Positions 3,766-24,845 of a stretch of DNA of 64,000 nt are shown here, piece by piece. Position numbers and translations under genes: made by a program. Source of the stretch: Actinomycetota bacterium (GTDB lineage Bacteria; Actinomycetota; Thermoleophilia; RBG-16-64-13); assembly GCA_012514635.1 (NCBI GenBank), contig JAAYZX010000122.1, forward strand, positions 3,449 to 67,448, read 5' to 3'. The notes beneath the pieces are model-generated. The model saw only the letters and a list, made by a program, of their open reading frames with translations, was not told where the DNA came from and did not search any database. Each line of letters starts with the position of its first letter. Within the stretch, counting starts at the first letter, position 1.

Positions 3766-4895
3766 CCCGTGAAGAGCTGCTTGAACTTATGGAAGAAGCC
3801 TTCCGTCTTATGGTTATAGTGTTCTTCGCCGCAACACTCGTCAAAAGCCTGCAGAAAATCTCTCTGCCGCTCGTCCAGATTGCGCGGCACCACAACATTG
3901 ATGAGGATTCTCTGTGCACCGCGTCCCGTCTGTCGCAAACGTGGGACCCCCCGCGAACGCAACGTGATCACGTCACCGGGCTGAGTGCCGGCAGCGAAAT
4001 GAACCTCTTCTTCTCCATCCAACGTAGGCACGTTGAGATCTACACCAAGCGCCGCCTGAATCATAGTCAAATCCTGACGATACAGAATGTCATCCCCATC
4101 CCGTTGGAACAGAGGATGCGGAGCCACCCGCACCTGCACATATAGATCTCCCGGCTGCCCACCCCGTTCTCCGACACCGCCGCGTCCCGTCAACCTAACA
4201 CGCTGGCCGTCTGCGATCCCCGCTGGAATGTCCACCGACAGCGTGCGCGCGCGCAGGGACCTGCCCGCTCCTCCACACGCGGCGCAGGGTTCACCGATAA
4301 TGCGTCCTTCACCACGACAGGCGGTGCAGGGACCCGTCTGCACAAGCCGGCCGAGCAAGGACTGCCTAACCGTTTGCGAAACTCCACTACCTCCACACAC
4401 CGAGCACGTGGTAACCGACGACGGATCGGCCGTGCCCGCTCCTCCGCACTCCGGGCAGGTATCCAGCGCTTCGATCTCTACATCCTTGGTGACTCCAAAG
4501 GCCGCCTCCTCGAGATCCAGCACAACTTCTACCAGAAGGTCCTGTCCGCGTGCCGGCTCTGCCCGCTTTTGAGCTCCTCCACCAAACCACGAGCCGAAGA
4601 AACTCTGGAAAATATCGTCGAAGTCGCCGAAGGGACCGTTGAACCCACCAAAACCAGATCCGCCCGCGCCCCGCCGGAAGGCATCCGGCCCGTAGGTGTC
4701 GTACAACCGCCGCTTCTCAGCATCGCAGAGCACCTCGTAGGCCCGCGTGGCTTCTTTGAACTTTTCTTCGCAATCCGGATCGTGGTTGTTGACATCAGGG
4801 TGGAGCTCGCGCGCGAGCCGCCGGTAGGCTTTCTTGATGGTCTGTGTGTCGGCGTCACGTGGCACACCGAGCACTTCGTAGTAATCACGCGTCAT
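3762..4895 (-). CDS. dnaJ: Chaperone DnaJ (actinobacterial hrcA-dnaJ2 arrangement)
   Basis: J-domain YYEVLGVPRDADTQTIKKAYRRLARELHPD, a G/F-rich linker and four CxxCxGxG zinc-finger repeats. Confidence 0.9.
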   Translation of the reverse strand: MTRDYYEVLGVPRDADTQTIKKAYRRLARELHPDVNNHDPDCEEKFKEATRAYEVLCDAEKRRLYDTYGPDAFRRGAGGSGFGGFNGPFGDFDDIFQSFFGSWFGGGAQKRAEPARGQDLLVEVVLDLEEAAFGVTKDVEIEALDTCPECGGAGTADPSSVTTCSVCGGSGVSQTVRQSLLGRLVQTGPCTACRGEGRIIGEPCAACGGAGRSLRARTLSVDIPAGIADGQRVRLTGRGGVGERGGQPGDLYVQVRVAPHPLFQRDGDDILYRQDLTMIQAALGVDLNVPTLDGEEEVHFAAGTQPGDVITLRSRGVPRLRQTGRGAQRILINVVVPRNLDERQRDFLQAFDECCGEEHYNHKTEGFFHKFKQLFTG

Positions 4896-5938
4896 TCGTA
4901 ACGATCCTCTAGGAATTCTGACAGGAGGTGTGCAGTGCCCCGCACAGTGGCAATGGCAGATTCATAATCCATGCGGGTGGGTCCCACTAGGCTCACAGTG
5001 CCCAACGTCCGCTGCGGCAGACCGTAACCAGCGGCCACAAGCGAGAAGCTACGCAACGTCTCCACTACATTCTCTTCCCCGATACTCAGGTAGACACGAT
5101 CTCTGTCCAAAGCAGATCGGAGCACGCGCAGGATAAGATATCTCTCTTCAAGCAGACACATGAGGCGATGCAGCTCGTCCAGATCGCAGAACCGTGACGC
5201 ATCCAGAAGTGTGGAAGCGCCACCTACGTACAGTTCGGCAGACGACTCCTCGTCCAGCAGGCGACTGAAGGCGCGTTCCAACGTACCCAGAAACGCTGCC
5301 TCTTTGTGGGACAGCTCCGGATTGGTCAGCGCGCGACGTATCGTGCGCTCCGAGATTAACGAATCACCGATCAACTCGTTCAGGTATGCGCGCGCCCACT
5401 CCACCGTGCCGAGATCTACGGGAGCTGGGTACTCTATCATTTCCTTGGTCACACGCCCTGTTGACACAATGAACACTACCAGCAGTACGGAAGACTGCAA
5501 TAGCAGCAATTCTACGTGTCGCAGGCGGGCACCGCTGGTACGCGGCGCCACCACCAAAGCCAGCAGGTTGGTGGCGCGGGCCATGGCCTCGCTTGTCTGT
5601 TGCATGGCGGTGTCCACTTCTATGGCCAGTTCGTCCAGCTGTACCGGAGGTTGCGCTACATCTTTTCCAGTCTGGGCCGCAACCAGCGAATCCGCGATCT
5701 TGCGGTAACCGAGATCCGTGGGCACCCGGCCGGCGGAGATATGTGGATGAGTGAGATACCCAAGCTCCTCCAGGGTGGCGAACTCGTTGCGCACCGTAGA
5801 GGCCGATACTTTAAAATCCGCCTGCGCGGCAACCGACCTAGAGGACACGGGCACTCCGGAACGGATGTACTGTTCCGTAGTGATCCTCAGGATTATTTTC
5901 TGTCGCTGCGTGAGCGGCATAACGTGTTCGACTTCCAT
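4892..5938 (-). CDS. hrcA: Heat-inducible transcription repressor HrcA
   Basis: N-terminal winged-helix LTQRQKIILRITTEQYIRSGVPVSSRSVA. It is operonic with dnaJ with a 4-nt overlap. Confidence 0.9.
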   Translation of the reverse strand: MEVEHVMPLTQRQKIILRITTEQYIRSGVPVSSRSVAAQADFKVSASTVRNEFATLEELGYLTHPHISAGRVPTDLGYRKIADSLVAAQTGKDVAQPPVQLDELAIEVDTAMQQTSEAMARATNLLALVVAPRTSGARLRHVELLLLQSSVLLVVFIVSTGRVTKEMIEYPAPVDLGTVEWARAYLNELIGDSLISERTIRRALTNPELSHKEAAFLGTLERAFSRLLDEESSAELYVGGASTLLDASRFCDLDELHRLMCLLEERYLILRVLRSALDRDRVYLSIGEENVVETLRSFSLVAAGYGLPQRTLGTVSLVGPTRMDYESAIATVRGTAHLLSEFLEDRYE

Positions 5939-5949
5939 CTTTGACGGAG

Positions 5950-7197
5950 CTACTCATCGGCAGGCGTGAGGAGAATGGCGGACAGCACCGCGTTGACCAC
6001 GTTAAGCCCGCCCACGCTGAGTGTGAGTTTACCACAGCGCTCTTCCAGCAGGCCCCTTTCCAGGAGAATTGCGGTGCGGGTTCCGTCGAGCACGGGCTCG
6101 ATGAGCCGCCGCCCAACTCCTTGGCGCGTGCGCAAACCGAGCATGGCCCGCTCAAACAGCTTTGTCCTGGGAGCCAGCTCCTCCACATCCGCTCCAAACG
6201 AGCGAAGTCTATGGCTGCAGAGAGCGGTTACCCGCTCCACCTCTTGGCCCGGCGGCCAGACTCGACAATATGTTTCCACCGGAGCAGGATTCGTCCAGCG
6301 ATATCGGCCCACCGTGGAGACGGCACCTGCCCCCAGGCCCAGATAGTCGTGCCCCTGCCAGTACCCCTGGTTGTGCCGGCACTCAAAACCGGGGAGCGCA
6401 AAGTTAGACACCTCGTAACGTCCGTAACCCGCACTCTCCAACAACGCCACCGCCCGCTCGTAGTGGCGCTCGGCGAAGATCTGCGCCTGCGCTTGGGCCT
6501 CGGGCCCGAAGCGCCGAGCCAGCCCGGCGGCGAACCGCGGCGTGTACGTCAAATCATACAGCGAGATATGCGCCGGCCCCGCCGCCACGGCGCGGGCCAG
6601 ATCCCGCTCCGCCTGCATCCAAGACTGTCCGGGGATCCCGAATATCAAATCGATATTCCAATTCTCCAAACCGCACGCAACCGGCAGTGCGCAGGCATCA
6701 TGTATATCCTTATCCGCCACGCGACGGCCCAACACCGAGCGCAGCGACACATCGAAGCTCTGTATCCCTATACTGAGGCGCGTCACCCCCTCTTCCAACA
6801 GCCGTAGCAACGTCCTTTCCTGGAGGCTCTCCGGGTTGGCCTCTATCGATATCTCGCGCGGCCACATCCCCTCACCGGTGACACAACCATATCCCCCGCC
6901 GCCACTCCCCACCGGTTCCGCCGCGGGCGAGCCACCCGTCACCATGCGCACCAGTTCCACTAACACCCCTACAGGCAGACAGGTAGGAGTTCCACCCCCC
7001 ACGTACACGGTGTCCACCTGTACATCCAGAAGGGAACGGAAAGCGTGCAACTCTTCTCGGAGAGACGCAAGGTAGGCGGCCGCCGCCGGTTCCCGGGCGG
7101 CCGGCCTCAGCACTTCCGAGACGAAGTCACAGTATGCGCAGCGCGTTCGACAGAAGGGCACATGCACGTAAAGATGGCGCACTGTTCCTGCAACCAT
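5950..7197 (-). CDS. hemW: Radical SAM family heme chaperone HemW (HemN-like)
   Basis: HLYVHVPFCRTRCAYCDF radical SAM CxxxCxxC motif at the N-terminus; 415 aa, in the typical position between hrcA and lepA. Confidence 0.85.
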   Translation of the reverse strand: MVAGTVRHLYVHVPFCRTRCAYCDFVSEVLRPAAREPAAAAYLASLREELHAFRSLLDVQVDTVYVGGGTPTCLPVGVLVELVRMVTGGSPAAEPVGSGGGGYGCVTGEGMWPREISIEANPESLQERTLLRLLEEGVTRLSIGIQSFDVSLRSVLGRRVADKDIHDACALPVACGLENWNIDLIFGIPGQSWMQAERDLARAVAAGPAHISLYDLTYTPRFAAGLARRFGPEAQAQAQIFAERHYERAVALLESAGYGRYEVSNFALPGFECRHNQGYWQGHDYLGLGAGAVSTVGRYRWTNPAPVETYCRVWPPGQEVERVTALCSHRLRSFGADVEELAPRTKLFERAMLGLRTRQGVGRRLIEPVLDGTRTAILLERGLLEERCGKLTLSVGGLNVVNAVLSAILLTPADE

Positions 7198-7558: not shown

Positions 7559-9364
7559 TTACTTGGTGTTGAGATCGAGAACAGCCAGGAATGCTTCCTG
7601 CGGAATCTCTACGGTACCCACCATCTTCATACGTCTCTTGCCTGCCTTCTGCTTCTCCAGAAGCTTGCGCTTGCGGCTGATGTCGCCCCCGTAGCACTTG
7701 GCCAGGACGTCTTTCCGAAGAGCCTTCACCGTCTCCCGCGCTATGATGCGGCTACCGGTGGCAGCCTGTATGGGGACATCGAACAATTGGCGAGGAATGC
7801 GCTTGCGCAGTCGTTCCACCAAACCCTTCCCCACCGCGTATGCTTTCTCTCGATGGCTGATCAGGCTGAGTGCATCCACCACGTCGCCCGCAATGAGGAT
7901 ATCCAGCTTGACCAAATCCCCTACACGGTAGTCGGCCAACTCGTAATCTAGGCTGGCGTATCCGCGGGTTCTGGTCTTTAGCAGGTCGAAAAAATCGAGC
8001 ACGATTTCCGCCAACGGCAGATCGTACGTCAAGCGAATGCGATCCGTGGACAGGTACTCCATCTCTCCAAAAACGCCCCGCTTTTCTTGGCAGAGTTCCA
8101 TGACACTGCCCACAAACTCCTGCGGAACCAAAACGCCGGCAGTAATATAAGGTTCTAGAACTTCTTCTATCTTGCTACCGTCCGGAAAATCCGTAGGATT
8201 GCTAATGGGCAATATCGTGCCGTCGATCAACACTACCTTGTAGAGCACGCTGGGAATGGTCATCAGCAGCTCCAGACCGAACTCTCGCTCCAGTCGTTCG
8301 CGGATGATCTCCATATGCAGCAGGCCAAGAAAACCGCAGCGAAAACCAAAGCCCAAGGCTTTGGAGGTTTCCGGTTCGTAGTGTAGGGCTGCGTCGTTCA
8401 GTTTGAGCTTCTCGAGAGCGTCCTTGAGATCCGGGTAATCCTCCCCATCTATAGGAAAGAGTCCACAGAAGACCATGGACACGGCTTCGCGGTAGCCGGG
8501 CAGCGGCTCCGCCGCCGGCCGCTGGGCGTCGGTCAGCGTATCTCCCACCCTCAGATCCTCTACCTCTTTGATGCCGGTTATGATGTAGCCCACCTCGCCG
8601 GCCTTCAGCTCGTCGGCCTTGCGCATATCGGGGCCGAAGAACCCCACCTCTTCCACCTCGCTGCGCCGATCGCTGGCAAATACCCGGATCATCTGACCGC
8701 CCCGGAAGGTGCCGTCGACCACGCGAACGAACGCCACTACTCCGCGATACTGGTCATAGAGCGAGTCGAAGATGAGAGCGCGCGCCGGACCATCGAGTTC
8801 TCCTTGAGGCGACGGTATACGTACCACGATCGCCTCCAACACCTCCAGAACCCCCTGCCCTGTTTTAGCCGATATAGGCAGTATCTCGCCTCTGGAGCAG
8901 CCTATGAGATTCATGATCTCCTCAGCGCGCCGTTCCGGTTCGGCTCCGGGAAGATCGATCTTATTCAGTACCGGCACAATCTCCAGATCGTTCTCTAGCG
9001 CCAGGTAGATGTTGGCGAGAGTCTGGGCTTCTATGCCCTGACTAGCGTCCACCACCAGCAACGCGCCCTCGCACGCCGCCAAGCTGCGAGACACCTCGTA
9101 GTTGAAGTCCACATGCCCGGGTGTATCGATGAGATTCAACTGATACTGCATCCCATCAGCCGCTGTGTGCAGCACTCGTACGGCCTGCGCCTTGATGGTG
9201 ATACCCCGTTCACGCTCAAGATCCATCCGATCGAGCACCTGCTCCCGCATCCGCCGTTGCTCTACGGTATTGGTGATCTCCAAAATACGGTCGGCCAGCG
9301 TGGATTTCCCATGATCAATATGGGCAATGATGGAGAAGTTACGAATGTGCGAGAAGGAAACCAT
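7559..9364 (-). CDS. lepA: Translation elongation factor 4 (LepA)
   Basis: [26 protein letters not shown]-binding motif. The likely start is the Met of [10 protein letters not shown], because the ORF-track start at 9433 adds a non-conserved extension. Confidence 0.9.
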
Positions 9365-9436: not shown

Positions 9437-11023
9437 TCACGCCGACGATGAGTTAACGCCCACCCTCCTGCCTCTGCGCCTCAAAACCTCGAGCACCAGC
9501 TGCATTTCTTCCATTCTGAGAAGCCGCGCACATAGCGCGTAAGCCCCCAGGCCCAGCAGGTAACCTACGCCCACCGAGACCACCTGTGCCGGGTTCGACC
9601 GTCCCAACCATGCGTCCAGCAACCACCAACTCCCGTAGGCCACTCCGGCCAGCAGTATGCACGCGGCCAGCGATCGACCGATACTATCTAGAAATCGCCT
9701 ACCGCCCAAAGGTCCCACTTCCCGACGCAGGAGCCAGTAAAGGCCTAGGAAGTTGACCACAGTCACGGCGCTGGTAGCCATGGTGATACCCCCTATCCCC
9801 AAGGGCTTATACAAGAGGTAGTTCAGAAGTACGTTGACGCCCAGGTTCAGACAACCCATGAGTAGAGGTGGCCATGTCTTCTGGATGCCGTAGAAGCCAC
9901 GGCTCAACAACGTATTGGCGCTGACAAACGACATCCCCAAACTGAAGAAGTACAGTGCCCAGGTGACGGCCGCAGTGTCGGCGGCTTTGAATAGACCATG
10001 CTCGTAGATAAGCCGAACGGTGGGTTTGCCCAGAACAAGAAAGAAGGCCGTAAAAGGCAAGGTGAGAAAGAAGACCTGCCTGAGTCCGGATGTGAGCGCC
10101 TCCTTGAACTCGGGCATCAACTTCGACGCCGCCAACCGCGAAAGAGAGGGCAGTAGTACGGTACCGATGGCTATGGCGAATACTCCCTGCGGCAACTGGA
10201 AAAGACGGAACGCCTTGTCAATGACCGCGGGTGCCGGCTCGCTGATGAAGCTGGCAAAGATCGTGTTCACGAACCAGTTGATATTCACAAGGCCGAGACT
10301 GAGCACTACCGGCCACAACAACACGCCCACGCGGCGCACGGCCGGGTTGCGCAGATCCACGGAGAGACCTCCCGGCTCCCACAATCTGATGACCGCCGGT
10401 AGTTGCATACAGAGCTGAACCGTGGTACCTGCCACCACCCCCCATGCCAGAGCATAGAACCCGTAGCTGCGCGCGAAGAATGTGATCGACGCGATGATTA
10501 CCACATTCCACACGATCGGCCCCAAAGCCGGTAACGTAAAATGATCGTAGGAATTGAGAATCCCCACCACGATGGCAACCAGGCCAAGCAACAGCACAAG
10601 AGGAAACATGATGCGGGTGAGATCTACAGCCAGAGCAATGGTGGCCGGATCCGAGTAGCCGGGAGCCATGAGCCAGATCACCTGCCGAGCGAAGAGCACG
10701 CCGAGCAGACTGAGAGTTCCCAACACGATGAGGGCGACAAGAGACACGCTCGTTGCCACCCGCCATGCTTCCTGCCTCCGCCCTTTGACCAGCAACTCGG
10801 AGAAGACGGGAATGAAGGCTGCACTCAGAGCGGTATCCGACACCATAGTCCACACCAGACTGGGCGCTTTGAATGCCACCGTAAAGGCGCCCATGTCGGC
10901 CCCCAGACCCAGGTAGTACACCATCACCTGTTCCCGCACCAGCCCGAGGACACGCGAAACCGCGGTGGCGGCCATGATAAGTGCGGCCAATGAGGCCAAT
11001 CTGCGGGGAGTTTCGTTGCCCAT
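9437..11023 (-). CDS. murJ: Lipid II flippase MurJ (MviN)
   Basis: 528-aa polytopic membrane protein with the MurJ-like N-terminus AVSRVLGLVREQVMVYYLG and about 14 hydrophobic segments. Confidence 0.85.
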   Translation of the reverse strand: MGNETPRRLASLAALIMAATAVSRVLGLVREQVMVYYLGLGADMGAFTVAFKAPSLVWTMVSDTALSAAFIPVFSELLVKGRRQEAWRVATSVSLVALIVLGTLSLLGVLFARQVIWLMAPGYSDPATIALAVDLTRIMFPLVLLLGLVAIVVGILNSYDHFTLPALGPIVWNVVIIASITFFARSYGFYALAWGVVAGTTVQLCMQLPAVIRLWEPGGLSVDLRNPAVRRVGVLLWPVVLSLGLVNINWFVNTIFASFISEPAPAVIDKAFRLFQLPQGVFAIAIGTVLLPSLSRLAASKLMPEFKEALTSGLRQVFFLTLPFTAFFLVLGKPTVRLIYEHGLFKAADTAAVTWALYFFSLGMSFVSANTLLSRGFYGIQKTWPPLLMGCLNLGVNVLLNYLLYKPLGIGGITMATSAVTVVNFLGLYWLLRREVGPLGGRRFLDSIGRSLAACILLAGVAYGSWWLLDAWLGRSNPAQVVSVGVGYLLGLGAYALCARLLRMEEMQLVLEVLRRRGRRVGVNSSSA

Positions 11024-20078: not shown

Positions 20079-20567
20079 TTATTCCTGAACCTTCACCAAC
20101 AACACCGGACACTTGGATGCATGGAGCACCTGCGTACTTACAGACCCCAGCGCCAATCCGGCGAGACCGCCCAATCCACGGTTACCGATCACGATTAAAC
20201 GGCAGGAGTCGGCAGCGTTGGCTTCCCTAATGATAGCTGCAGCCGGAGACGTGTCTTCCAGTAACTGTTCGTAGACGGTGGCGCGAGGATTGGTGAGTTT
20301 GGCTCGGATCCGATCAGCGGCTTCAGAGAGGAGAGTACGTGCCCGCTTGACGTCTTCATCCGACGACTCCGGTGAATATGGTGTTGTCTTTACGTACATA
20401 CGACGACGAGGTTGGATGACCGTAACCACCTCTATCTGGCAGTCCTCCAAGGAGTTGCAGATTAAGGCGGCCGTTTCCTCAGCGACCCGCGCAGGGGCGG
20501 AACCGTCGGTTGCAACCAAGATCTTGCTGCTCAGCATTGACACTCTCTCCCGATAGGCGGTATACAT
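20079..20567 (-). CDS. Universal stress protein (UspA family)
   Basis: USP fold with ILVATDGS at the N-terminus and GNRGLGGLAGLALGSVSTQVLHASKCPVLLV at the C-terminus. Confidence 0.8.
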   Translation of the reverse strand: MYTAYRERVSMLSSKILVATDGSAPARVAEETAALICNSLEDCQIEVVTVIQPRRRMYVKTTPYSPESSDEDVKRARTLLSEAADRIRAKLTNPRATVYEQLLEDTSPAAAIIREANAADSCRLIVIGNRGLGGLAGLALGSVSTQVLHASKCPVLLVKVQE

Positions 20568-20619
20568 GCTGCGGGCGGCCGGGCGCCTGCGCCCGGCCGC
20601 CCGCTCCTCTCGCAGAGTA

Positions 20620-21120
20620 TCAGTCGGCCTTCACAACGAGAACCGGGCCGTGCGAGCCGTGCAGCACTTGTGTACTCACCGAGCCCAAGGCGAGGCTACC
20701 AAAACCTCCCAGCCCACGGTTCCCCAGCACAATCAGGGTGCGGTCGCCCTTTTCGCGGGCCTTATCCACTATAGCCTGAGCCGGCGAGGGTGCTTCCAGC
20801 ACCTTGCCAACAACGGTTACCGAGTCCGATTTCACAATATTCTGGATCCTCTTGATGGCCGCATCCACCACCGCCTGAGCGTTCTTCTGCTCCTCCAGGC
20901 TGCACGCCAGATAGTCGAACTCCTTGATACGCACCACATTCTCTGAGACCAAGAATTCGGACATGCAGGTCAAGGGGATAACGTTCACAACCGTGATCTC
21001 CATCTGTCCCACAGCGTTCGCCAGATCCGCAGCCATGGCCTCAGCAGCCATCGCCGGATTGGACCCATCGGTGGGTACGAGAATGTTGCTCGGGATCATG
21101 GTCCTCCTTCCGTCCATCAA
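20620..21120 (-). CDS. Universal stress protein (UspA family), tandem paralog
   Basis: ILVPTDGS ... GNRGLGGFGSLALGSVSTQVLHGSHGPVLVV. Confidence 0.8.
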   Translation of the reverse strand: MMDGRRTMIPSNILVPTDGSNPAMAAEAMAADLANAVGQMEITVVNVIPLTCMSEFLVSENVVRIKEFDYLACSLEEQKNAQAVVDAAIKRIQNIVKSDSVTVVGKVLEAPSPAQAIVDKAREKGDRTLIVLGNRGLGGFGSLALGSVSTQVLHGSHGPVLVVKAD

Positions 21121-21317: not shown

Positions 21318-23291
21318 CTACGCATCCAACGCCACCACGCGATCCGTCAAACCATCCCACTCCTCGTAGAGCATGTGGAGCTCGTCCGCTACACGTTCAG
21401 CGTCCTCCAGCGCATCCACCAGCACCTGGTAGTCGGAGCTGTGAGCGGGACTGCTGAGAACAGCGGCGAGCTGCTCTTGGCGCTCTTCCAGCTCCACGAT
21501 ACGCTTCTCCACCTGACGATGGCGCCGCTGCAGCTCCTTGCGATCCTGATAGCTCAGACGAACAGGCTGATCGACACTTGGTGGGCTCTGCACCCCGGCG
21601 CCGGCAGCGGAGACTGCTCCCGCAGCCGCAGCGGTCTCCTCGTCGGTGTCGCTGCGCAATCTAGGACCGGTGGCGGATGTCGGTGTCGTCGCCCTGCCCT
21701 TCTTCCACTGATAGTACTCCCAATCACCCTGATAATGGATCAAATGGCCGTCCACCACCTCCACCACTTCGGTGGCGATGGCGTTAATGAGTCGCCGGTC
21801 GTGGCTGATGAAGACAATAGACCCCTCGAACTGACGAAGGGCCTCCATGAGTACTTCACGCGAAGCCATGTCCAGATGGTTGGTGGGCTCGTCGAGCAAC
21901 AGTAGGCCGGCCGGGTCGAGCAGCATCTGGGCCAGCGCCAACCGCGCCTTCTCTCCCCCCGACAGCACCGATACCTTCTTGTCCACATCATCTGCGTTAA
22001 ACAAAAAGGCGCCAAGATACGAGCGCGCGCGCGCCGCATCCCCGGCGCTGGAGACGGCCTGAATTGCCCGCAATACCGTGTGGTCTGGGTTCATAACCTC
22101 GGCTTGGTGCTGAGCATAGTACTCACGGCGTACCTGGTAGCCCAAACGCACCTCCCCGCCATCGGGCCGTTCCACGCCGGCCAGCATCTTGAGTAGAGTG
22201 GACTTGCCGGCCCCGTTGGAGCCCACCAAGGCAATTTTATGGCCCCGCTCGATCACTATATTGAGGTCCGAGTACACCACCAGATCCCCGTAGGCCTTAC
22301 GCACATGCGAAATTTCGGCTGTCACCCTCCCTGTGCGACCCGGCTGTGGAAAGCGGAAGTTGATGACGGGTCGATCGAGATTAGGAGCATCGATCCGTTC
22401 CATTTTCTCCAACTGCCGGATCTTCTGCTGCACTTGCTTAGCCTTGGTATTTTTGGCCCGGAAACGACGGATGAAGGCCTCGGCCTGCTCGATTTCGCGC
22501 TGCTGATTCTTGGCGGCGTTGGCCAACGCCTCATAACGTTGCCGCTTTTCGCGCTCGAAGTGATCGTAGTTGCCGGTGTAGAGATCCAGCGTGCCGCGAT
22601 CCAACTCCACTATGTCCGTAACCATACGATTGAGAAAGTAGCGATCATGACTGATAATCACCAGCGACCCCGGCCAAGCCATGAGAAACTCCTCCAGCCA
22701 GAGCAGACTTTCCAGATCGAGATGGTTGGTGGGCTCGTCGAGCAACAGCAGATCGGGCTGCTCCAGCAACAGGCGCGCCAGAGCCACGCGCATGCGCCAT
22801 CCACCGGACAGCTCTGCAATAGGTCGACTGAAGTCCCTGTCCTTGAAGCCTATGCCGCGCAACACTGCTTCGGCACGACTTTCGATCTCATATCCGCTCG
22901 ACATCTCAAAGGCCGTCTGCAGCTCAGCCATCTCCCGCAACAGCACCCTCGACTCCTCCGGCGAGGCCGCCGTCAGCCTCTCGCCGAGTGCATGCAGGCG
23001 TTGCTCCATATCCAGTACCTCTTGATACGAAGAGAGCACTTCCTCCATCACCGTGGAACCGGCTATCTCTTCGATCTCTTGGGGCAGGAAGCCGATACGC
23101 AGATCTTTGCGGCCGGAGATCTCGCCGGCATCCAGCGACAGCTCCCCGGCAATTAGACGGAGTAATGTGGTCTTGCCGGCACCATTAGGACCTACCAGCC
23201 CCAGGCGTACACCCGGCCTGATATGCAGCCCGGCATCCTCCAGGATGACCTGGTTCCCGAAAGACTTGGAGATGTCGGTGATATGCAACAT
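21318..23291 (-). CDS. ABC-F family ATPase (tandem ABC cassettes, no TM domain)
   Basis: Two Walker A motifs (GPNGAGKTTLL and GSNGAGKSTLL), two LSGGE signatures and a coiled linker; 657 aa. Confidence 0.9.
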   Translation of the reverse strand: MLHITDISKSFGNQVILEDAGLHIRPGVRLGLVGPNGAGKTTLLRLIAGELSLDAGEISGRKDLRIGFLPQEIEEIAGSTVMEEVLSSYQEVLDMEQRLHALGERLTAASPEESRVLLREMAELQTAFEMSSGYEIESRAEAVLRGIGFKDRDFSRPIAELSGGWRMRVALARLLLEQPDLLLLDEPTNHLDLESLLWLEEFLMAWPGSLVIISHDRYFLNRMVTDIVELDRGTLDLYTGNYDHFEREKRQRYEALANAAKNQQREIEQAEAFIRRFRAKNTKAKQVQQKIRQLEKMERIDAPNLDRPVINFRFPQPGRTGRVTAEISHVRKAYGDLVVYSDLNIVIERGHKIALVGSNGAGKSTLLKMLAGVERPDGGEVRLGYQVRREYYAQHQAEVMNPDHTVLRAIQAVSSAGDAARARSYLGAFLFNADDVDKKVSVLSGGEKARLALAQMLLDPAGLLLLDEPTNHLDMASREVLMEALRQFEGSIVFISHDRRLINAIATEVVEVVDGHLIHYQGDWEYYQWKKGRATTPTSATGPRLRSDTDEETAAAAGAVSAAGAGVQSPPSVDQPVRLSYQDRKELQRRHRQVEKRIVELEERQEQLAAVLSSPAHSSDYQVLVDALEDAERVADELHMLYEEWDGLTDRVVALDA

Positions 23292-23341
23292 AATCTAAGC
23301 GAAATATGTCCTGAGCGGCGCGGTGGGCACGATTGGCGCCG

Positions 23342-23717
23342 TCAGGCATCCACCGGTTCCACGCGCGCCTGAAAGGCACGCCAGGACGGAAACCCGGATA
23401 CAGGATCGTACGCGGGTGCCCCGTAATGCGTCAACACGTTGGCGTTGGCTTCTTCCCATCCGATGGGATGGAACCCTCCGCAAACATTGCGGCGCAATGG
23501 AGCCCAGAGCCGCTCGGGCGAGTTTTGTAGCTCCAGCAGCGCACGACCCTTTGGACAAACGAAGCCGCGCGTGTCCGGAGAAGCCGCGCGCGTCCGGATC
23601 ATGCTTGTGGCCGTATACGGCCGTCACACGACCTCCCACCACCTCCACTTCGAGACCGCAGTGGGCTTCACATAGCGGACAATTGCTGATAACCACACGA
23701 GTCTCCACGCTCGACAC
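23342..23717 (-). pseudogene. Remnant of a molybdopterin (bis-MGD) oxidoreductase gene, formate-dehydrogenase-like N-terminus only, frameshifted and truncated
   Basis: The N-terminal 4Fe-4S motif CPLCEAHCGL...VYGHKHDPD(A/T)RGF continues in another frame as VCPKGRALLELQNSPERLWAPLRR...GGFHPIGWEEA. That corresponds to the C.KG...RL..PL.R...ISWDEA signature. The reading frame stops about 125 codons in, immediately before the ABC-F gene, so roughly 600 or more codons are missing. Confidence 0.7.
23552..23589. repeat. 19-bp tandem duplication (2 copies, 17/19 identical) causing the frameshift in the oxidoreductase remnant
   Basis: aagccgcgcgtgtccggag / aagccgcgcgcgtccggat. Each copy encodes PD(T/A)RGF on the minus strand. 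Confidence 0.8.
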
Positions 23718-23721
23718 ACCT

Positions 23722-23738
23722 ATATGATTTCATCATAT
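23722..23738. promoter_or_regulatory. Palindrome ATATGAT-ttc-ATCATAT in the AT-rich region upstream of the oxidoreductase remnant; candidate operator
   Basis: Perfect 7-bp inverted arms with a 3-nt spacer, immediately 5' of the GTG start on the minus strand, inside an unusually AT-rich 40-nt stretch. Confidence 0.35.
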
Positions 23739-23960
23739 GTATCATTTTATTTTACCTCCCGCGAGTGACCACCTGTCAGAGGAACGCAACCACGCATGAG
23801 TGCTTGGCGGGAACCAGACCATGCCATCGTGTGACGAATGACTCTCTCCCGGCTTCTTACTCCCGCATAAATCAGCGCCCGCTCGGGTACACTGCGGGAG
23901 TACGGACTACGCACACGGCTCCACACTCCCGCCGCGGCCCGCCCTCAGGAGGATGGGAAG

Positions 23961-24845
23961 GTGACCCAAACACAGCTAATCATCGTCATCGTTATCGCAG
24001 TGGTGGTGATCGCTATCATTGTCACGCTGGTGGCCCTTCGCCTCCGCAAGAAACGCAGAATCGCAGCCATGGACCCTGAAGAACGCGAGCTGTACGAGGC
24101 CGAGCGCCACTACCGCGAGACAGTGGATAAGGCACGCAAGACACTGCAGGCCACTCAGCACAGTTGGGATCAGCGGGTCAAAGATGCGGAAGAATCGCTC
24201 AAGGAGGCACGCCGCATTGGGTATCGACCGTTGGGATCACTCGAGAAAGTTGATCTGTTTGAAGACCACCTGGAGACTCCCGACGGAGCATTTCAGTTGA
24301 GCGGTGGTCCCGTAACCGCAATCGTGGAGACGGCTGAGCAATTAACAGCCACCCGCCAGGATGCGCTCTCGCGGGCCGGCAAGGAGATCATGCGAGAGTT
24401 GTCCACGCAGGCAGGGGGTGAAGGACCCTCCACGCAATACCTCCTAATCGAGACGCCCATCTTTGTGACCGTCCGCCGTCTCCGTGACGGAGATGTAGTG
24501 AAGGCGCGCCAATTTGCCAGCAGTATCAATAGTGCGGCGGCATCTACGGATGAACTGGCCCTGCGGCGCCGGGAGGCCGCCGACGCAGCTCAGTCGAAGC
24601 TTGACCAGGTCAAAATGGACATGCAGGCTGCAGTGCAGGCAGCGCAGCAAGAGCTGGACCGGGTCAAGACCGACACCGAGCGATTGGATGCCGCCCGCCA
24701 AGCATACCAACACATCAAAGGGGTTGCGGCTACTACTGAGGGGCCGATCGCCGCACCCGCCGCCGAACCGGCTGCGCCCACAGAAGTCCCGAAAACACAT
24801 CCCGACGAGAAGGAAACGCACCCTGACGAGAAAGGGGCACAATGA
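23961..24845 (+). CDS. Membrane-anchored coiled-coil protein, hypothetical
   Basis: GTG start with an AGGAGGA SD. N-terminal TM segment LIIVIVIAVVVIAIIVTLVAL, followed by a charged alpha-helical region (ELYEAERHYRETVDKARK...). The C-terminus carries a tandem THPDEK repeat encoded by an 18-bp DNA repeat. Confidence 0.5.
   Translation: MTQTQLIIVIVIAVVVIAIIVTLVALRLRKKRRIAAMDPEERELYEAERHYRETVDKARKTLQATQHSWDQRVKDAEESLKEARRIGYRPLGSLEKVDLFEDHLETPDGAFQLSGGPVTAIVETAEQLTATRQDALSRAGKEIMRELSTQAGGEGPSTQYLLIETPIFVTVRRLRDGDVVKARQFASSINSAAASTDELALRRREAADAAQSKLDQVKMDMQAAVQAAQQELDRVKTDTERLDAARQAYQHIKGVAATTEGPIAAPAAEPAAPTEVPKTHPDEKETHPDEKGAQ

Follow-up and report, generated by a model that had tools for sequence, protein, structure and literature searches.

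What remains of a gene for a molybdenum enzyme when its N-terminus is split over two short open reading frames, and in which order was the rest lost? The question is raised by a locus on the minus strand of a 64,000-nucleotide stretch of Thermoleophilia DNA (the whole of which is called the window below). The sequence-only reading of this locus was that of a decayed molybdopterin-oxidoreductase gene, namely an N-terminal fragment that is interrupted by a 19-bp tandem duplication and then truncated. The assignment to the molybdopterin oxidoreductases is borne out by the Fe4S4 domain (PF04879) and by an intact ortholog in a related genome. The truncation is not: the gene has retained its true C-terminus and its native stop codon, and an in-frame deletion of 569 codons had been overlooked. 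Judged from the comparison with its relatives, the locus is very probably the non-functional relic of a gene for a cytoplasmic Mo/W-bisPGD (MopB) oxidoreductase of about 680 residues, which would have decayed in at least two steps.

Extent and reading frames of the remnant

Two overlapping minus-strand open reading frames are indeed present in different frames, ORF1 (23717..23295, 140 aa) and ORF2 (23602..23342, 86 aa), and the motifs CPLCEAHCGL, HKHDPDARGF/PDTRGFVCPKG, RLWAPLRR and IGWEEA can be read in them as had been described. When either copy of the 19-mer is removed, a single frame of 117 codons (rather than the approximately 125 residues of the earlier reconstruction) runs from a GTG at 23717 to a TGA at 23342–23344. 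The whole pseudogene remnant of this MopB-superfamily gene thus extends over 23342..23717 (−), from the native GTG start to the native TGA stop. The two frames as called do not reflect these borders: ORF1 (23295..23717, −) continues past the duplication out of frame into meaningless sequence, and the ATG of ORF2 (23342..23602, −) at 23602–23600 is an artefact located just upstream of, and overlapping, the first copy of the 19-mer.

In the repaired product Pfam recognizes only PF04879 (Fe4S4), at residues 7–59 with 56.1 bits. The first three cysteines of the N-terminal 4Fe-4S motif lie in CPLCEAHC (23658..23681, −), whose counterparts, identified through an alignment of the intact ortholog, are CQSCDINC in acetylene hydratase and CPYCGTGC in FdhF; the fourth lies in FVCPKG (23546..23563, −), which has been moved into the +1 frame with respect to the start codon. 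The molybdenum core domain PF00384 has no Pfam match in the remnant, and PF01568, reduced to its final ~35 residues out of ~105, is below Pfam detection. The NCBIfam models for FdhA, PhsA, NasC, NapA and others match the remnant over their first ~80–130 positions only, that for the formate dehydrogenase alpha subunit (TIGR01591) with 44 bits. Of the "Fe-S and Mo-binding fragment" that had been proposed, the Fe-S part therefore stands, but the Mo-ligand cysteine and the PF00384 core are gone, and from its sequence the remnant is predicted to be unable to bind the cofactor. A second MopB gene was not found within the 64-kb window when it was searched by tblastn with the intact ortholog.

Full-length relatives and the internal deletion

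The earlier note had suggested looking in related genomes for an intact ortholog at the syntenic position, and such a gene was found in a Gaiellales metagenome-assembled genome (MAG) from an anaerobic digester (L007). It is 678 codons long, intact in a single frame (3961–5997), and ends 3 bp before the start of the ABC-F gene. Relative to this intact syntenic ortholog the copy in the window is disrupted. By tblastn the intact protein matches the remnant at residues 6–77 and 642–678 only; residues ~78–641 are missing, which corresponds to 569 of the 678 codons (84%), and they are missing in frame. The tail of the remnant, NANVLTHYGAPAYDPVSGFPSWRAFQARVEPVDA, which with the native stop occupies 23342..23447 (−), shows 70% identity (E 8e-11) to the last ~37 residues of the ortholog, 642–678. 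The deleted segment holds the PF00384 core, the cysteine in the ligand column (AGSHC, at about residue 135 of the ortholog) and most of PF01568.

The same picture is obtained from other sources. In a search of the protein database with the remnant, C-terminal PF01568 fragments were found (P0004 and P0005) which read ...LLHGWEEANAN(L/V)L(T/S)HYG(A/E)PAYDPISGFPSWRAF(Q/L)ARVEPV, and also a protein of 111 aa (P0001) that has the same fusion of N- and C-terminus in a single uninterrupted frame. P0004 is encoded on a 297-kb Thermoleophilia MAG contig (AnMBR.bin144, GCA_040770645.1; L004/L006), which carries a molybdoenzyme gene of ~2 kb at the position matching that of the remnant, flanked by the ABC-F gene and, on its other side, by a divergent gene for ~300 aa together with a LiaF-like gene. 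By BLASTN the window aligns with this contig in two collinear blocks, the 5' part with positions 8132–8383 and the 3' part with positions 10081–10356; the 3' block matches the end of the molybdoenzyme gene with 78% DNA identity and runs directly on into the ABC-F gene.

These data bear on the truncation that had been assumed, in which the duplication interrupts an N-terminal fragment and the C-terminal 85% was lost by a cut on the 3' side. Such a cut would account for Pfam seeing only the N-terminal Fe4S4 domain in the repaired product, and the estimate of the missing amount was correct (~84%). It is the middle that is missing, however, and not the end: the last 37 residues align both to the end of the intact ortholog and to the PF01568 fragments, the native stop is kept, and the DNA alignment continues from the 3' end of the molybdoenzyme gene into the ABC-F gene. 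A 3' truncation can therefore practically be dismissed.

The junction between the two retained parts is CGGATGGGAAGAAGC (23448..23462, −), which encodes GWEEA and represents the only copy left of a direct repeat of 15 bp. It is contained in both BLASTN blocks, at positions 8369–8383 of the 297-kb contig (N site) and at 10081–10095 (C site), where its counterparts are CGGGTGGGAGGAGGC and CGGATGGGAAGAGGC, respectively; in the intact ortholog the two sites read GWAEA (residues 73–77) and GWEEA (residues 642–646), the deletion between them being an exact multiple of 3. That one copy of the repeat is left at the junction is the signature of a deletion mediated by repeats or microhomology. It should be noted that the two repeats are only 12/15 identical in the 297-kb contig and 11/15 in the intact ortholog, so that the ancestral microhomology may have differed in length from 15 bp.

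The first step, which is common to the sister strains described below, would thus have been the in-frame excision of 569 codons, brought about by recombination, slippage or end joining at two GWEEA-encoding direct repeats of 15 bp, located around residues 75 and 644, respectively. The Fe4S4 domain would have been fused by it to the last ~35 residues, with the native start, the native stop and the upstream region being kept, and the loss of the Mo-ligand cysteine and of the whole cofactor-binding core would have abolished catalysis. For this step as for the later one the molecular mechanism is inferred, whereas the sequences themselves show the junction, the order of the two events, the neutral evolution and the presence of an intact ortholog in synteny.

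Deletions flanked by microhomology (about 40% of the deletions, with a bias toward multiples of 3) and insertions that create repeats are typical of bacterial pseudogenes (PMC6054270), whose decay has a deletional bias (PMC2817411). The remnant conforms to this in that the end points of the deletion lie in a short direct repeat of which one copy is kept, in that the length is a multiple of 3, and in that the inserted bases duplicate the sequence next to them in tandem, with substitution having been neutral since then. It differs in scale, the deletion being about 1.7 kb and the repeat 15 bp as compared to the microhomologies of 1–12 nt tabulated for small indels (PMC6054270). It also differs from typical decay in that the open reading frame of the N–C fusion lasted long enough to be common to diverged strains.

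How widespread the decay is among the relatives can be said only in part. The full-length gene on the 297-kb contig (8154–10201) has three frame switches (2 to 1 to 0 to 1; at about 9596, 9847 and 10000) where the Gaiellales gene is continuous. In two of them a single base has been lost from a G4/C4 run, for which a (long-read) sequencing error is possible; all three are in the enzyme gene and none is in its neighbours (rough p about 0.02). The idea that the gene has decayed independently in every relative would, on these sequences, be only partly supportable. In a further contig (L005) there is an in-frame TAG at 959–961 where the two full-length genes have an arginine codon (SLR*QMPEP vs SLRRLMPEP); the coverage of this contig is 1.2x, and the TAG may be an error. 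Near the enzyme gene the 297-kb contig also has a 171-aa Beta_elim_lyase fragment (3789–4304), which appears short for a member of this family. For this contig there are either several decaying genes or indel errors of the assembly.

Order of events in the sister strains

Three independently assembled contigs, L001 (Logan SRR22941225), L002 (NCBI GCA_001577815.1) and L003 (ENA ERZ941572), are 95–96% identical to the window. All three have the identical junction, one 19-mer each and an open frame of 111–117 codons. When the remnant is aligned with its sister sequence over 701 bp, the sole gap is exactly 19 bp. Since the sisters have the junction and a single 19-mer, the deletion is the older event, predating the split of these lineages, and the duplication arose afterwards and is private to the lineage of the window. 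The deletion, being present without the duplication in the sisters, is thus the primary inactivating event.

Selection on the fused open reading frame

The open frame of the sisters raises the question of whether the fusion product was ever of use. For the comparison of the window with L001, dN/dS was calculated by the method of Nei and Gojobori. The fused frame has a dN/dS of 1.23 (dN 0.065, dS 0.053) from 16.5 nonsynonymous and 4.5 synonymous differences, the counts (21 differences) being small. The corresponding values of the neighbours are 0.05 for the ABC-F gene, 0.15 for the LiaF-like gene, 0.35 for the 294/306-aa gene and 0.34 for the 279-aa gene. The contrast is significant both against the ABC-F gene (Fisher p = 2e-5) and against the pooled flanks (1e-3), and the split into nonsynonymous and synonymous changes is indistinguishable from the neutral expectation; dN of the fused frame (0.065) is about equal to dS of the neighbours (0.06–0.07). 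Purifying selection on the fused frame has thus been lost. Because it evolves neutrally between constrained neighbours, the gene was dead before the frameshift, which is a secondary lesion.

It is against this background that another explanation has to be weighed, according to which the N–C fusion is a small functional 4Fe-4S protein, open in the sister strains and rescued in the window by programmed +1 frameshifting. The open frame in the three sister contigs, the retention of all four cluster cysteines and the promoter-like region upstream would all be expected of such a protein. A dN/dS of 1.2 next to neighbours with 0.05–0.35 would not, and the substitutions include a P-to-S change beside the fourth cysteine and changes in the tail. 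Moreover, the fused pieces come from different domains of the parent fold. Programmed frameshifting, which the earlier note had named as a way to a continuous full-length gene, finds no recognizable slippery motif at the break when the sequence is read, and the 19-bp insert, being absent from the three sister contigs and from both full-length relatives, does not qualify as a conserved recoding signal. A functional mini-protein in the window is therefore highly improbable. For the open reading frame in the sister strains, with its four Fe-S cysteines, a residual role is unlikely but not impossible.

The 19-bp tandem duplication

We return to the relic and its later lesion. That a 19-bp duplication breaks the frame had been seen correctly; its coordinates are 23561–23598, about 10 bp from those that had been given (23552–23589). 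Tandem Repeats Finder reports a period of 19, 2.0 copies and a score of 69, with 18/19 positions identical, and on the plus strand GAAGCCGCGCGTGTCCGGA is followed by GAAGCCGCGCGCGTCCGGA in perfect register at the point where the frame breaks. In 64 kb ~3e-5 of such period-19 pairs are expected by chance. On the minus strand, copy a (TCCGGACGCGCGCGGCTTC, 23580..23598) is upstream in the sense of the gene and has a G at one position where copy b and the sister lineage have an A; this A-to-G substitution thus came after the duplication. Copy b (TCCGGACACGCGCGGCTTC, 23561..23579) is the ancestral-like one, which is identical to the single copy of L001 except for the second base (C in the window, T in L001). 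In the second step, confined to the lineage of the window, the frame would have been shifted by the tandem duplication of 19 bp within the sequence for the Fe4S4 domain, with a point substitution in one of the copies following later, and from then on the remnant would have drifted neutrally beside an intact ABC-F gene.

Could the duplication be an artefact of assembly or sequencing, the genome in fact carrying an open frame of 117 codons as the sister strains do? The window stems from a MAG (going by the annotation of P0003), the repeat sits in GC-rich sequence containing (CG)n, and a scan of JGI metagenome contigs yielded no further homologous copy: with a pattern covering the one-copy and the two-copy state of the 19-mer there were 29 hits, none of them homologous by blastn/tblastn, which are chance matches. 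A SPAdes contig of 2,317 bp from a different pipeline (ENA ERZ778040; L040), however, is 100% identical to the window and repeats the region base for base, including both diverged copies; it is a separate assembly, which may share source reads with the MAG of the window, so that an artefact at the level of sequencing is still formally conceivable. In addition, the copies differ by one base, which is not what k-mer assembly errors give, and the difference in length from the three sister contigs amounts to precisely one repeat unit. From these three lines an assembly artefact appears unlikely, and we consider it quite improbable that the genome itself has the open frame. Even if it had, the main conclusion would be unchanged since the fused frame is neutral also without the frameshift.

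The parent enzyme

What kind of enzyme was lost can be approached via the intact ortholog of about 680 aa, which contains PF04879, PF00384 and PF01568 (residues 573–676). The best PDB matches of this parent are acetylene hydratase (2e7z, 1.5e-70) and FdhF of HDCR (7qv7, 2.7e-61). With acetylene hydratase (2e7z) and FdhF (7qv7, 1aa6) it shares the three-domain architecture and the size, and it has a cysteine in the column of the Mo/W ligand, whereas the copy in the window has residues ~1–77 and 642–678 only. The stitched full-length protein of the 297-kb contig scores 311 bits with TIGR01591, the cut-off of which is 666, and is thus not assigned to the Fdh-alpha equivalog; with every NCBIfam equivalog the parent is far below the trusted cut-off. 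The label "formate-dehydrogenase-like" that the remnant had been given would therefore be correct at the superfamily level only.

In the alignment of the parent with 2e7z, CPLCE falls on CQSCD and a cysteine on the column of the Mo/W ligand, the residue after the second cysteine being Glu instead of Asp, at modest overall identity. Acetylene hydratase has a cysteine as ligand to tungsten and an acidic residue, Asp13 in 2e7z, directly after the second Fe-S cysteine. As a lead, the alignment suggests that the lost enzyme may have been acetylene-hydratase-like rather than a formate dehydrogenase. A twin-arginine leader was not seen on reading the N-terminus of the parent by eye, which suggests a cytoplasmic enzyme.

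Neighbourhood and upstream region

The gene order is conserved between the window and L007: the genes for p279, the LiaF-like protein and p294 are followed, in divergent orientation to p294, by the gene of the Mo-enzyme, the ABC-F gene and two genes for universal stress proteins. The intact gene of the ABC-F ATPase (21318..23291, −), our syntenic anchor, starts 50 bp after the stop codon of the remnant. Downstream of it, at 20079–21120 (−), are the two tandem universal stress protein genes (PF00582); as this pair follows the ABC-F gene also in L006 and L007, the conserved block reaches beyond the pseudogene. Among 34 loci in GTDB species representatives that were anchored on the ABC-F gene, only L006/L004 and L007 have this neighbourhood. 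The flanks of the others are unrelated, and these remaining 32 loci are therefore uninformative on gain versus loss of the enzyme. The divergent neighbour (23961–24845, +; 294 aa) has a weakly DUF948-like N-terminus and is 306 aa long in L001 (1365–2285). Outside of the remnant the alignment of the window with L001 has 36 more gap positions; the 294-aa protein ends in a repeated THPDEK motif, in which a change in the number of repeats is likely. In the window no tRNAs were found, and Rfam gave nothing credible, neither for the leader plus remnant at permissive E-values nor for the whole window at the gathering thresholds; a Moco riboswitch was not among the results.

An AT-rich, promoter-like region adjacent to the remnant had been noted, and it is there: positions 23718–23760 have 28% GC (60% in the window), with an AT-rich island of 38 bp (23719..23756, −) directly upstream of the start codon and one sigma-70-like match, TGGTCA-16-TAAAAT (23744..23771, −), which is a match to the consensus only and is present in L001. 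The island includes a perfect palindrome, TATGATGAAATCATA (23723–23737; TATGAT-GAA-ATCATA), and is found with it in L001 with two substitutions. Neither of the full-length relatives, L004 and L007, has the island, the palindrome or the consensus match. A role of the palindrome as a regulatory site conserved with the enzyme was therefore rejected; the palindrome could be an operator for some regulator or a drifted promoter. The upstream region of 243 bp shared with the divergent p294 gene differs from that of L001 at 10/243 positions, which is near the neutral rate.

A second sigma-70-like match, TTGACG-18-TACGAT (23405–23434, −), lies within the C-terminal tail, ~110 bp upstream of the start of the ABC-F gene. 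L001 has it as well and L004 has a near match (TTGACC); neither L005 nor L007 has it. The match could serve the ABC-F gene as an internal promoter or be a by-product of the coding sequence LLTHYGAPAYDP. A terminator-like site was not found between the remnant and the ABC-F gene.

The spacing of 3 bp between the stop of the intact enzyme gene and the ABC-F start in L007 suggests an operon, and one may ask whether the two ends of the gene were retained as carriers of signals that drive the ABC-F gene, be it the upstream promoter or palindrome, the match in the tail, or both; a deletion would under this reading be tolerated only if it left both ends in place. As a further possibility, the parent might represent an uncharacterised acetylene-hydratase-like clade that is restricted to a few Thermoleophilia of anaerobic digesters and is being lost. 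We mention these proposals as speculation that is rather unlikely to be correct.

Implications

The relic has already left traces in the databases. P0003, the NCBI "hypothetical protein GX604_10590" (137 aa), is ORF1 begun three codons downstream (METRV...), P0002 (86 aa) is an ENA entry, and P0001 (111 aa) is from the sister contigs. These entries are pseudogene fragments that gene callers have taken as real and should be flagged as such, and the value of the analysis is mainly in annotation. The locus is an ordinary, well-resolved multi-step pseudogene which opens no new biological question. What it does provide is a fully ordered series of decay, from an intact ortholog via a repeat-mediated deletion that left the frame open, as it still is in the sister strains, to the frameshift, and an example of the fact that a small open reading frame containing a recognizable domain can already be neutral.
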